DNA from: Escherichia phage 1-6bf
Direction: 5' to 3' (one strand)
Length of the DNA stretch: 64,000 nt
Sequence record: OR983334.1
The position numbers and the translations under genes are program-made. Under the pieces are notes generated by a model. The model worked only from the letters and a program-made list of their open reading frames with translations. It made no database searches and was not told the origin of the DNA. Below, piece by piece: positions 39,519 to 45,241 of the stretch; position 1 is the stretch's first letter; every line of letters starts with the position of its first letter.

Positions 39519-40136
39519 GTGAGCTTAGTAGCTGATTTTTCTCATTACTATAATGGTACATGGATTGCTAAACGAGCAGGTAATATCAACCTTCCATGTT
39601 TTGTGATTGGTGTTGAGCAGAGCGGTAACTTCCGCAGTGATGACTTCTCTCACGAAGCAGAGCAGGCTCTGTACTTTGTTGTAGAGCAGTGGTACAAGAA
39701 CGAGCAAGGGCATCTTCGAAACACTACGATGAATATCCCAGTGTTCGACCCAACCCTGATTCTTGAATCACCTGACGTTGGTTATCTGTTCCATAACGGT
39801 AACACTGTAAGCTGGACTCATATTAACCCTGTTCGCCAGAGAGCAAAGGGCTTAATGGGTAATAAGATTCGAAATGCTCCGGGTGTTGGTCGTGCTATCT
39901 CCGGAGAGATGGTTTACAGTCTGTTCAATCCTGAATTCGAAGGATTGGTTACTCGTTATATTTACATCAACCCTACAGATGGTAAGGTGCATTATAAAGG
40001 TGCACTGGTAGGACAAGTAGATCTGGAAGCACCTCGTGACTCTTACGGTCAGCAACCGATGCGACTTCTGGAACATTTTCATCACATTTCTGAAAACCTT
40101 AGCAATTACAATATTACGTTGGTGGATTCGTTATGA
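39519..40136 (+). CDS. Hypothetical protein (205 aa), amidoligase cluster
   Basis: ORF track. Confidence 0.4.
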   Translation: MSLVADFSHYYNGTWIAKRAGNINLPCFVIGVEQSGNFRSDDFSHEAEQALYFVVEQWYKNEQGHLRNTTMNIPVFDPTLILESPDVGYLFHNGNTVSWTHINPVRQRAKGLMGNKIRNAPGVGRAISGEMVYSLFNPEFEGLVTRYIYINPTDGKVHYKGALVGQVDLEAPRDSYGQQPMRLLEHFHHISENLSNYNITLVDSL

Positions 40137-41236
40137 CAACTGTAGCGCAAACTTTTGGATATCGAGAAGGTCGTTTAACTGAGGCGCATAGTTCAATTGC
40201 ACTTCAGTGCGGTGTCGGTATTGAACTTGAACTCGAAGGTTCCGATCATATCGAAGCAGATATGTGGGATTGTACAGAGGATGGTTCCCTGCGTAATGGT
40301 TGTGAAATGGTATGTTCACGACCTTACAACGGACAGGAGTTGTTAGACGCTATCAACAACCTGAGTGAAGCAGTAGCTGAATCGCACGCCGAGGGGACTT
40401 GGCGTTGCTCTACTCACGTTCATATGGATATGAGGGATGCTGATAGTAATATCCTCAAGAAAACCATTCTCGCTTGGACCTTCTACGAAAAGATGTTGTT
40501 CAAGTGCTCAGGCTACCATCGTTACCGTAGCAATTTCTGCCCTGCGTTTGCAGTGGTACAAGCACAGGTAATGAATGCCTCTGACGCATTTAACTACGAT
40601 GGTGAAGAGTTCTTCAACCGTCTGGTTCGTTCATGGGATAAGTATACATCCCTGAACCTTCTGCCACTTGCCCAATACGGTTCGATTGAGTTCCGTATCA
40701 GCGAGCCTAAGTGGAAACGTGGTCAACTTCTCAATCTGGTTAACCGCTTCTTGATGCTGAAGAAGCTGGCTTTAGATAACGCAGATATGAGCAACGATCA
40801 GTTTGTTGAGCATTTAAATACTGTACGATTTGCCCCAATGCTTCCTTACCTTCCTCTGGATTACAATCTGGATGAATCGGATTTGCATTCAGGTTATTGT
40901 ATGGCCCGTGATGTTTTGTATTGTCGTTCTCATGAAGTAGAACAGTCTGGTCGTATTCGTTTACGTCGAACCAACTCCAACGGAGATGTTCTTGTTGACT
41001 TGCGTCTTATGTCAGACTTCTATGGATTCCTTGGTTATGTCCGAGGGAACGCTAACAACTTGTATCAAGAGATTTTGGTTATGCTTCGTACAGCAGACCT
41101 ATCTCAAGTAAGACACGCTCCAGAACAACGTATCCGTGCTATTTTTGACTTACTACGTGAGTCAGGTCACAGTGATAGCAATATCACAGGGTACATTCCA
41201 GACCATCTGGAAAATCAGTTAGAACAAGCGCTGTAA
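40133..41236 (+). CDS. Amidoligase (glutamine-synthetase-fold COOH-NH2 ligase) (367 aa)
   Basis: CGVGIELELEG .. STHVHMDMRD .. YGSIEFRISE blocks; ATGA overlap with upstream gene. Confidence 0.55.
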   Translation: MTTVAQTFGYREGRLTEAHSSIALQCGVGIELELEGSDHIEADMWDCTEDGSLRNGCEMVCSRPYNGQELLDAINNLSEAVAESHAEGTWRCSTHVHMDMRDADSNILKKTILAWTFYEKMLFKCSGYHRYRSNFCPAFAVVQAQVMNASDAFNYDGEEFFNRLVRSWDKYTSLNLLPLAQYGSIEFRISEPKWKRGQLLNLVNRFLMLKKLALDNADMSNDQFVEHLNTVRFAPMLPYLPLDYNLDESDLHSGYCMARDVLYCRSHEVEQSGRIRLRRTNSNGDVLVDLRLMSDFYGFLGYVRGNANNLYQEILVMLRTADLSQVRHAPEQRIRAIFDLLRESGHSDSNITGYIPDHLENQLEQAL

Positions 41237-41282
41237 TCAATGGGTGCCTCTGACAAAGGGGCACAATTTAAAGGTTAATTAG

Positions 41283-41312
41283 ATGAAAGGGTTTACCCTT
41301 CAGGTGGATTAG
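41283..41312 (+). other. Nine-codon upstream ORF (MKGFTLQVD) ending in TAG, in frame with the glutamine amidotransferase
   Basis: ATG at 41283 with AAAGG RBS; TAG at 41310-41312; in-frame AGGTGG lies 8 nt before ATT 41316. Confidence 0.35.
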
Positions 41313-41315
41313 AAA

Positions 41316-43346
41316 ATTTGTGGCATCGTATTAGCTGGCGGTAATCTGTCAAGCACTGATTTAGACGTATTCAACCAACTCTTTTATGCTGGAGTATTCC
41401 GAGGACAACATTCCTCCGGTATCTTTGGTCAGCGTAAAAGCACTAAGGAAGTCTTCACTTATAAAGAAGCTCTTCCTTCTTTCGCATTCATCCTACAAGA
41501 TGAGTACAAGAAGCACACCACTGGTGAAACAGCTTACACTGTAGCACCTTCATGGATTGTTGGTCACAGTCGTCATGCAACGAAAGGTGCAGTTAACGCC
41601 AAGAACGCCCATCCTTTCCAACATGGTAACATCACTCTGGTTCATAATGGAACCTTGATGGACCAAGATCTGTTACCTGACAGCAAAAGCTTCGAGGTAG
41701 ACAGCGAGAACATCTGCCACTCTATTAACACTATCGGTGCAGCAGAGACTATTCAAAAGCTGGATGGTGCTTTCACCTTAATCTGGCATGATGCTTCTGA
41801 TAACCGCCTTCATATCATTCGTAACGAAGAGCGTCCTTTCCACCTCGCACGTTGTAACAGAGATTGGTTTGGTGCTTCTGAAGAAGATATGTTGATGTGG
41901 ATTCTGAAGCGTTCTAAGTCTCATAAGAACCGTATTGACGAGCATTTTGAATGTAAAGTTGGTACAGAGTATATCTTTGATATGTCAAACAACGGCATGA
42001 CTCTGGTTGAAGAGGTCGCCCACGAGCTTCCGGTTTTTACGGTAGCCAATCGTTGGGGCAGTTATTACTCGAACAACTACAGCCAAAGCAACTATCAAAG
42101 TTCCTCAAAAAGCAGTACAAGCAATCCCTACGACACGAAGCCGGGAGTGACAGCGGCAGATGTTCGTCGAAGAAACGCAGTGGTAAGTCAAAACAAAATC
42201 GCAAGTGATCGAAACATTGATATTCGCCGCGATATGACTGTGGAAATCACTCCGCATGAGTTTGTTCCTTATGCAACTGCTGGTGCTGTTCCTTCTCGTG
42301 GTAAGATGATTGGTTATATCTACGATGAGAAATCTCAAGAGTATATCGAAGGTGATGTCCATAACGTAGATATTAAGGCTTATCAGGATGCCCTGAAAGA
42401 CCCTAAAATTGTTTACCGTGGGACAGTATCCTGTATCTCCGAAGTTAATGCTATGGTTCGCTTAGTGATCACAGCAGGTCGTTTTGTTGACCCATCTCTG
42501 GAGAAAAAGGAGCCTGAGTCTACTACTGCTGACTTTGATGATGATATCCCTTTTGACATGAATGATAGTTTCGTCAACAAGAATGGCGTTACTATCACTC
42601 GTAAATTCTGGGAAGCACATTCTCATGGTGATTGTGGTGGTTGTGACAAACACATTGATTGGAAGGATGCACCTAAAGCAGTCTTCGCATATCAGTGCTA
42701 CTGGCATCCTGAATGTCTGGAAGGTTTGACTAAACCTAAAGAGGAAGAAGAGGAGGAGACTCCTATTGGTGTTTGTGAAATCTGTGGTGAAGTTAAAACA
42801 GAGAATGAGTTCGATGATGAACTTAGTCGTCTTCGCGGTGAAGATATCTGTAAAGCCTGCGCTGTAGAGGTAAAGAAGAAAGTATCTAATGCTACGATCA
42901 AAGATGGTTATGTATGGATTAAAGCAACAGATACAACAAACGCCCGTCGTCCTGAGTTTGCTTTACGTGTAACTGAAGATATGATTGGTCGTATGACTGT
43001 ATTACCTTCCTCAGCGAAACAGACAGGCATCACTCTGGAGGATGTTGTTGATGCTTATGTTGAGAAACGTAGCAACAGTATTTTTGCAATCTCAACTAAG
43101 CCAAAAAAGGAGGAACCTGCTGAGAAAGCAGGTGTGTTTCCTGAATCACGAACAACTCTCCGCAAAACTGTTGTCAGCTTCGACGGAAACCGAAGCACTG
43201 ACTTCACCAAAGCCATGTGGTCAACCCTTGGATACTGCTCAGAGTGTTTTAAGCAGATTCCGTGGCGCGATGCTGAAAGTTGTACGCTTGGTTCTATGAA
43301 TCAAGTTTATTGTAATTCTCCTAAATGTTCATTGAATAGAGGTTAA
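41316..43346 (+). CDS. Class II (Ntn) glutamine amidotransferase domain fused to a ~430 aa Cys-rich C-terminal region; start codon uncertain (ATT or readthrough)
   Basis: Frame reads K-I-CGIVLAGG..VFRGQHSSGIFG..VGHSRHATKGAVNAKNAHPF..LVHNGTL, matching PurF/GlmS-type N-terminal motifs; C-terminal part has several CxxC pairs. Confidence 0.55.
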   Translation: MCGIVLAGGNLSSTDLDVFNQLFYAGVFRGQHSSGIFGQRKSTKEVFTYKEALPSFAFILQDEYKKHTTGETAYTVAPSWIVGHSRHATKGAVNAKNAHPFQHGNITLVHNGTLMDQDLLPDSKSFEVDSENICHSINTIGAAETIQKLDGAFTLIWHDASDNRLHIIRNEERPFHLARCNRDWFGASEEDMLMWILKRSKSHKNRIDEHFECKVGTEYIFDMSNNGMTLVEEVAHELPVFTVANRWGSYYSNNYSQSNYQSSSKSSTSNPYDTKPGVTAADVRRRNAVVSQNKIASDRNIDIRRDMTVEITPHEFVPYATAGAVPSRGKMIGYIYDEKSQEYIEGDVHNVDIKAYQDALKDPKIVYRGTVSCISEVNAMVRLVITAGRFVDPSLEKKEPESTTADFDDDIPFDMNDSFVNKNGVTITRKFWEAHSHGDCGGCDKHIDWKDAPKAVFAYQCYWHPECLEGLTKPKEEEEEETPIGVCEICGEVKTENEFDDELSRLRGEDICKACAVEVKKKVSNATIKDGYVWIKATDTTNARRPEFALRVTEDMIGRMTVLPSSAKQTGITLEDVVDAYVEKRSNSIFAISTKPKKEEPAEKAGVFPESRTTLRKTVVSFDGNRSTDFTKAMWSTLGYCSECFKQIPWRDAESCTLGSMNQVYCNSPKCSLNRG

Positions 43347-44992: not shown

Positions 44993-45241
44993 ATGGATAT
45001 GTTTTCATTGGAAGATCTAGTACAAAATGGAATGATGGAACAAAAAGAGCCTCTGACTGTAGGCTCTCGTAAAGAGTTGCGTAAGTTGTGTGAAGAATGG
45101 GGTATTACTAATCAGCGAATGATTGGTAATCAGTTCTCTGCAATTGTAACTTTCCTGAAACGTGGTGATAAGTATTCTATGGAATGTGTAGAACGTATCA
45201 TCACTGAAGCACAACAAGACAAGGGAGTGACCTATCTGTGA
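44993..45241 (+). CDS. Hypothetical protein (82 aa)
   Basis: ORF track. Confidence 0.3.
   Translation: MDMFSLEDLVQNGMMEQKEPLTVGSRKELRKLCEEWGITNQRMIGNQFSAIVTFLKRGDKYSMECVERIITEAQQDKGVTYL

Follow-up and report, generated by a model that had tools for sequence, protein, structure and literature searches.

The gene for a class II glutamine amidotransferase in Escherichia phage 1-6bf (sequence record OR983334.1) was analyzed within a stretch of 64,000 nucleotides, referred to here as the window. Comparison with related phages indicates that this gene is very probably translated from a non-canonical AUU codon at positions 41316 to 41318, directed by a Shine-Dalgarno sequence, and that the initiator methionine would then be removed, which would expose the catalytic cysteine (Cys1). 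In the proposed course of events, the Shine-Dalgarno sequence AGGUGG, 8 nt upstream, would place the 30S subunit, the AUU would be read by the initiator fMet-tRNA, and the methionine would be taken off by deformylase and methionine aminopeptidase, leaving Cys1 free as the nucleophile of an N-terminal nucleophile (Ntn) glutaminase. Methionine aminopeptidase removes methionine ahead of small residues such as cysteine, and removal is expected here because cysteine is the small second residue. The predicted product would carry the peptide CGIVLAGGNLSSTDLDVFNQLFYAGVFR with a free N terminus. The AUU, a weak start codon disfavored by initiation factor 3 (IF3), would keep synthesis of the enzyme low and IF3 sensitive. 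In addition, a short leader open reading frame (ORF) ends in UAG 3 nt before the AUU, and terminating ribosomes may be delivered from it to re-initiate at the AUU. A first-pass annotation of the window had given coordinates for the leader, the TAG, the ATT, the cysteine codon, and the AGGTGG, every one of which is correct (Table 1). Among the options that it had listed for a cysteine codon lacking a canonical start, initiation at AUU, possibly coupled to the leader, is favored by the position of the ATG in homologues, the Shine-Dalgarno spacing, and the selection on the downstream codons.

The catalytic cysteine of Ntn amidotransferases must be the first residue of the mature protein. From the cysteine codon onward the protein sequence reads CGIVLAGG..., and the Pfam families GATase_6, GATase_7, and GATase_4 match within residues 75 to 192, with scores above threshold for GATase_6 (54.4 bits; cutoff, 27) and GATase_7 (27.4 bits; cutoff, 25). 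Residues C1, G2, R28, G29, N96 to F100, N110, G111, and D128 are invariant across a 12-sequence alignment of diverse phage homologues (A1). The profile of this alignment matches the Escherichia coli GlmS glutaminase domain (1xff; E = 3e-11) and PurF (1ecb), and its position 1 aligns to Cys1, residue 1, of both. The sequence hallmarks of class II (Ntn) enzymes are thus present, namely, the alignment to Cys1, the conserved Arg, Asn-Gly, and Asp, and a domain match above the curated threshold. GlmS, PurF, and AsnB, which belong to class II, keep the Arg, Asn-Gly, and Asp and have the cysteine nucleophile right after the initiator codon, as is predicted for the phage enzyme. Unlike these proteins, the phage enzyme has a Cys-rich C-terminal part of 450 residues without a Pfam match, and its gene lies in a phiEco32-type ligase cluster.

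The first in-frame ATG, GTG, or TTG past the leader TAG is TTG 41655, which is codon 113 counted from the cysteine. The amidotransferase ORF has 114 codons ahead of any canonical start, the largest such gap among the long ORFs of the window. The second largest (85 codons) belongs to a 166-codon opposite-strand ORF inside the amidotransferase gene, which is probably not a gene, and the third is 30 codons. Given the codon usage of the phage, a run of 112 codons lacking a canonical start codon has a probability of about 0.007. The first 112 codons in the window (41319 to 41654) contain no Met codon, GTG, or TTG, a feature that is not conserved, phage SU7 having an in-frame ATG at codon 10.

Codons 1 to 112, all of which lie 5' of the first canonical start, have ratios of nonsynonymous to synonymous substitution rates (dN/dS) of 0.065 to 0.087 against SU7 and contig L013 (KBNP1711-like), with synonymous sites near saturation (proportion of synonymous differences [pS], 0.67 to 0.73); the ECBP2-like contig L014 stands outside these figures because its dS is too saturated to compute. 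No stops or frameshifts were found in these codons in the compared genomes. The strong purifying selection on codons 1 to 112, the invariant catalytic residues, and the alignment to Cys1 together mean that translation must start at or before the cysteine codon. The same dN/dS values and invariant residues refute an inactive domain, which the first-pass annotation had considered.

At the exact position of the ATT, the sequence ATG TGT GG (MCGIV...) is found in Salmonella phage 7-11, Proteus phage P59, Cronobacter phage GAP52, Vibrio phage Vp_R1, and Aeromonas phage 4_4572, and most relatives in IMG/VR likewise carry ATG TGT GG. A true N terminus elsewhere, with a Cys-Gly motif that is not conserved, would have spoken against the first-pass interpretation; the alignment instead has Cys-Gly conserved and the N termini of the homologues (MCGIV) at the same place. 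The Shine-Dalgarno sequence AGGTGG forms a duplex of -5.9 kcal/mol with the 3' end of 16S rRNA. The sequence features of genuine AUU or AUC starts of the infC and pcnB type are therefore found together at this locus, i.e., no canonical start before the N terminus, an ATG at the homologous position, a Shine-Dalgarno sequence, and coding-like evolution.

The start region is strongly conserved. Positions 41266 to 41325 (60 nt) show at least 99% identity in 96 phage records of two genera, and the start block was also found in independent metagenome contigs. A sequencing error, one of the options first listed, is refuted by the 96 records and the separate metagenome assemblies. Compared with SU7, the block is part of an exact 58-nt run (41266 to 41323); the 4-kb region around it averages 69% identity and has no other exact run longer than 26 nt. 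In contig L013, the identity begins only at about 41269, owing to a one-base deletion. The genomes of the window and SU7 are mosaic and share many longer exact runs elsewhere, so that run length alone is no proof of constraint, and this argument was dropped. Retention of the block in Aeromonas phage BUCT695, together with the cassette described below, is the better argument for constraint. The 8-kb contig L144 (CALKAR010000070.1), filed under a "Peptococcaceae" metagenome-assembled genome (MAG), carries the kuravirus leader and the 5' end of the amidotransferase gene unchanged and is probably a phage contig that was mis-binned. A scan of bacterial genomes for copies of the cassette in cells or prophages gave only chance matches and one MAG-binned kuravirus contig.

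Table 1. Features around the predicted AUU start of the amidotransferase gene (window positions)
Feature	Position	Strand	Remarks
Leader ORF (MKGFTLQVD and TAG)	41283..41312	+	9 codons, in frame with amidotransferase; stop 3 nt before ATT
In-frame TAG of leader	41310-41312	+	Inside spacer ATTAGAAA
AAA	41313-41315	+	Between leader TAG and ATT
Shine-Dalgarno AGGTGG of amidotransferase	41302..41307	+	Read from sequence
8-nt spacer ATTAGAAA	41308..41315	+	Between AGGTGG and ATT
ATT, predicted initiation codon	41316..41318	+	Position of ATG in homologues; start of coding sequence in phiEco32 and SU10 records
TGT, catalytic N-terminal Cys (Cys1 of mature enzyme)	41319..41321	+	Invariant C1-G2; profile alignment
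Full amidotransferase coding sequence (predicted)	41316..43346	+	ATT, 675 codons, and stop; N-terminal class II glutaminase domain
Invariant 55-nt block	41269..41323	+	Covers leader ORF, Shine-Dalgarno, spacer, ATT, and first two codons
Intercistronic stem-loop GUGCCUCU / AGGGGCAC	41244..41264	+	8 bp; directly after amidoligase stop codon
Small weak hairpin AAGGG-UUUA-CCCUU in leader ORF	41287..41300	+	About -6 kcal/mol; not better than shuffles

The use of ATT or ATC in place of ATG recurs across the enzyme family. A survey of 80 IMG/VR loci and 21 metagenome loci encoding relatives, plus named phages, was clustered at 70% identity into 72 lineages. The codon directly before the cysteine is ATG in about 75% of these lineages, ATT or ATC in 11 of the 72 (a count that leaves out L056, which has ATG), and TTG in 5. 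The ATT/ATC lineages are scattered over the neighbor-joining tree, and L133 and L137 (ATT) share their first 30 residues with L135 (ATG), which indicates that the switch between ATT and ATG can be recent. Every ATT/ATC lineage has a Shine-Dalgarno sequence 6 to 8 nt upstream, and all except L057 have an in-frame upstream stop (TAA or TAG, at 1 to 9 codons) followed by no canonical start. Given these shared features, AUU/AUC initiation is the sole mechanism that fits every case. Annotated AUU/AUC starts have a background frequency of 0.004 to 0.024% (PMC5499595), and the enrichment of ATT/ATC in this family is very large. With about 15% of lineages against a background of roughly 0.01%, the question arises why a start that is weak or sensitive to IF3 has been retained for this enzyme.

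The cassette AGG(A/T/C)GG-ATTAGAAA-ATT-TGTGG is identical in kuraviruses and suseptimaviruses, BUCT695, L034, L133, and L137. Phage BUCT695 belongs to a different family, and its protein is 53% identical to that of the window; the identities are 33% for the IMG/VR contig L034 and about 35% for the soil contigs L133 and L137. The shared cassette suggests either that the segment moves between phages or that the spacer is under selection. Tentatively, and with less confidence than is placed in AUU initiation itself, the AUU/AUC start may be a selected regulatory device of this enzyme family rather than a weak start that is merely tolerated, and unrelated phages infecting E. coli, Aeromonas, and uncultured hosts would maintain or exchange a portable cassette AGGNGG-AUUAGAAA-AUU-UGUGG. 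Such a device would tie glutaminase synthesis to IF3 activity or to the translational state of the infected cell, and kuraviruses would have an additional level of control in their invariant 55-nt leader with its infC-like mini-ORF. The family would then be the first besides IF3 with recurrently conserved AUU/AUC initiation.

Only two AUU starts, those of infC and pcnB, are confirmed in E. coli. Like the phage gene, infC has an AUU with a Shine-Dalgarno sequence and an upstream stop 3 nt before the AUU (UAA GGU AUU at the thrS-infC junction and UAG AAA AUU in the phage), and its non-canonical start is conserved among orthologues (PMC3592434, PMC5499595), as in the phage gene. However, the infC AUU serves autoregulation by its own product, whereas there is no reason to expect feedback of the phage enzyme on IF3. 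The upstream ORF is the full gene thrS for infC and a 9-codon mini-ORF in the phage, and the non-canonical start is not universal in the phage family, in which most lineages have ATG. Expression of pcnB, which encodes poly(A) polymerase I, is limited by its AUU. This AUU start has been confirmed in E. coli (bioRxiv 10.1101/063800), and a study on ebpA of Enterococcus faecalis describes an ATT start that holds the protein level down and for which automatic annotation chose a downstream ATG (PMC4447247). Both are single cellular genes with experimental proof, whereas the phage case is comparative only and recurs over many lineages of one family. A coliphage gene with a conserved AUU, an infC-like junction, and an invariant leader would offer a third, easily manipulated case for the study of IF3 discrimination and re-initiation.

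The role of the leader is less clear than that of the AUU. Translation could depend mainly on the leader, with ribosomes starting at ATG 41283, stopping at the UAG, and re-initiating at the AUU while de novo initiation is minor, although this is rather unlikely. The spacing of stop, 3 nt, and AUU equals that of thrS-infC, where re-initiation gives about half of the initiation and de novo initiation contributes to a similar degree (PMC3592434). Kuravirus, Suseptimavirus, and the distant phage BUCT695 (there MKGLTLQAD and stop) all retain the ORF in the same frame and with its TAG, and the whole leader is invariant at the nucleotide level. Among ATT-type genes, the two leader-bearing lineages are precisely those with the weakest Shine-Dalgarno pairing (-5.9 and -5.8 kcal/mol); the value is -11.7 kcal/mol for the leaderless cassette bearer L034, whose AGGAGG also occurs in L133 and L137. 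These values hint at compensation by the leader for a weak Shine-Dalgarno sequence. However, the ribosome-binding site that had been assigned to the leader ATG is present as a mere 4-nt AAGG (41271 to 41274, 8 nt before the ATG), which is weak, and the leader ATG of BUCT695 has no Shine-Dalgarno sequence. In addition, the small hairpin begins 4 nt past the leader ATG, and seven other ATT/ATC lineages (L034, L133, L137, L058, L063, L086, and L088) are leaderless, the first three with an identical ATTAGAAA-ATT spacer. The BUCT695 leader ORF differs at two sites, the loop of the small hairpin (GGGTTAACCC) and the Shine-Dalgarno sequence (AGGCGG). Each change replaces a residue of the leader peptide (F to L and V to A), which gives no indication that the peptide sequence is selected. 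The 3-nt distance from stop to start is compatible with termination-reinitiation, and a translatable, universally conserved upstream ORF is lacking among the ATT/ATC lineages. A real contribution of coupling to initiation at the AUU is possible, if on balance doubtful.

Readthrough of UAG 41310 from the leader ATG would produce a 12-residue propeptide (MKGFTLQVD-X-KI), to be removed autocatalytically as in Bacillus subtilis PurF, whose propeptide has 11 residues. The 12 in-frame codons here resemble the short in-frame stretch (about 11 to 12 codons) before the catalytic cysteine of that protein. In the relative L057 (IMG/VR 3300022540_000049), which has ATC before the cysteine, an in-frame ATG lies 12 codons upstream with no stop in between (MTVFIRLGDEKI-C), and this relative could be a genuine propeptide form. 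For the window, this explanation, which the first-pass annotation had also offered, is very improbable. Unlike in B. subtilis PurF, a conserved TAG, kept in all records, interrupts the frame between the upstream start and the cysteine. No suppressor tRNA was found; the window has no tRNA, and tRNA-Arg(TCT) is the only one in the complete SU7 genome. The stops of the other ATT/ATC relatives differ (TAA or TAG 1, 2, 4, 5, 7, or 9 codons upstream) and have no canonical start behind them, which indicates that readthrough cannot be the common mechanism, and L060, the closest relative of L057, carries TAA in that frame. All ATG-type homologues start with Met-Cys, so that no propeptide is needed. Equally hard to credit is a protein lacking the glutaminase domain, made from TTG 41655 or another downstream codon, with the upstream 112 codons as a decaying remnant. 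Gene callers picked downstream starts in 1-6af, SU7, and BUCT695, and the SU10 proteomics study (PMC4281155) detected the protein with a listed expected mass of 63.8 kDa, that of the truncated TTG-start model; the calculated mature masses in the window are 75.9 kDa for the full model and 63.7 kDa for the truncated one. Against this stand the low dN/dS with saturated dS in codons 1 to 112, the intact frame in every genome, and the invariant catalytic residues. Moreover, the TTG position varies among relatives (M, L, or V), and the downstream starts differ between annotators. Frameshifting from the out-of-frame ATGs seen in L057, L060, and L086 was rejected as a candidate, since there is no canonical slippery site and the window has no such ATG.

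Several points weigh against AUU initiation as the whole explanation. AUU is intrinsically weak as a start codon, giving 1 to 2% of the AUG level in E. coli (bioRxiv 10.1101/063800) and being six to eight times weaker than AUG in another E. coli system (PMC3592434), and IF3 discriminates against it (PMC5499595). The Shine-Dalgarno sequence AGGTGG of the window is imperfect. An out-of-frame TTG (41318) and GTG (41320) overlap the cysteine codon at distances of 10 and 12 nt from AGGTGG; initiation there would yield peptides of 8 and 4 codons, respectively, and these codons could compete with the weaker AUU. The invariance of 55 nt exceeds what a Shine-Dalgarno sequence and a start codon need, and the proposal may therefore lack part of the mechanism; in addition, the contribution of the leader is doubtful in view of BUCT695 and the seven leaderless lineages. 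The support is comparative: the SU10 study was the only proteomics found, its listed mass implies that the truncated sequence was searched, so that N-terminal peptides probably could not be scored, and its supplements contain no peptide lists.

The ATT is already annotated as the start of the coding sequence in two curated records, those of phiEco32 (RefSeq NC_010324, phi32_83) and SU10 (KM044272), and most others differ. The records of 1-6af, SU7, and BUCT695 use three different downstream start codons, by which the cysteine is lost. Among the 60 records listed, only eight have a coding sequence that reaches the ATT region, and the others have a downstream start or are unannotated. As a consequence, annotation of a downstream ATG or TTG removes the catalytic cysteine from the predicted protein in most Gordonclarkvirinae records in GenBank. 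No link between an ATT start and an amidotransferase, and no discussion of the start of phiEco32 gene 83, was found in the literature searched. Judged by its conservation, the ATT start appears to be real and to fall within the known class of AUU-initiated genes, and what appears to be new is the recurrence of ATT/ATC in a phage enzyme family and the shared initiation cassette with an infC-like junction.

Two hairpins lie near the start. The intercistronic stem-loop, which the first-pass annotation had placed at about 41245 to 41265, is real (Table 1), with a folding energy of -13.9 kcal/mol and a z score of -4.1, and none of 200 shuffled sequences folds as well. A hairpin at the same place in SU7 (GCGCUCU/AGGGCGC; -12.1 kcal/mol; z = -3.9) shows a compensatory change, and hairpins occur at the same position in phages 7-11, GAP52, P59, and Aeromonas phage 4_4572. 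A terminator scan makes no call for the stem-loop, and the lack of a U-tract sets it apart from canonical terminators. Rather than an attenuator, it resembles a partial terminator or an element for intercistronic stability or processing. The sole change in the small hairpin of BUCT695 is in its loop (UUAA). Folding of the leader is not better than that of shuffled sequences in the window (z = -0.6) or BUCT695 (z = +0.5), BUCT695 does not retain the lowest-energy pairing by which the Shine-Dalgarno sequence would be masked, and an Rfam search of the leader region at a permissive threshold returned nothing beyond chance-level matches. An attenuation-like control, as once proposed, is not borne out, given a stem-loop that precedes the leader and lacks a U-tract and a leader without significant structure.

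The C-terminal two-thirds of the amidotransferase (about 42000 to 43343) has no Pfam match and contains three Cys-rich CxxC...CxxC motifs resembling zinc ribbons; the homologue on contig L034 has a similarly Cys-rich C terminus. No synthase, isomerase, phosphoribosyltransferase, or synthetase domain was found in the protein with Pfam. The names "L-glutamine-D-fructose-6-phosphate aminotransferase," "glucosamine-fructose-6-phosphate aminotransferase," and glucosamine-6-phosphate synthase in databases are unsupported because the protein has no synthase or isomerase domain.

The window is from a phiEco32-like coliphage (Kuravirus), with the region showing 100% identity to Escherichia phage 1-6af and 97 to 98% identity to phiEco32, SU10, and other kuraviruses (Gordonclarkvirinae). 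The amidotransferase gene is the homologue of phiEco32 gene 83, and its start region falls between the amidoligase gene (40133 to 41236; Pfam Amidoligase_2) and the body of this homologue. The neighboring cluster, known from phiEco32, encodes a COOH-NH2 ligase (PF14395), an amidoligase, an ATP-grasp enzyme, and a GGACT/AIG2-like protein. One gene of the cluster, for which the phiEco32 and SU10 records give the name ATP-grasp enzyme or S6 glutaminyl transferase, has no Pfam match here. The cluster has been assigned speculatively to cell wall or peptide modification, according to the passage of PMC10580990 in which Iyer et al. 2009 is cited. Positions 44993 to 45241 correspond to phiEco32 gene 79, which shares a gene block with the amidotransferase cluster. 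The product of that gene is reported to inhibit host sigma-70 transcription and to activate gp36-dependent transcription (PMC8948821).

Phage BUCT695 (L020) has about 190 nt (2805 to 2995) between a ligase-like gene and the leader. This interval contains short ORFs that may be remnants of an HNH/HTH homing endonuclease. A conserved box, TTTAAATGTAAAT, lies about 20 to 25 nt upstream of the start in ATG-type relatives and BUCT695 (L005, L006, L007, L015, L016, and L020), and its counterpart in the window, at 41267 to 41279, is TTTAAAGGTTAAT. The box resembles, but does not match, the phiEco32 gp36 promoter element tAATGTAtA (PMC8948821).

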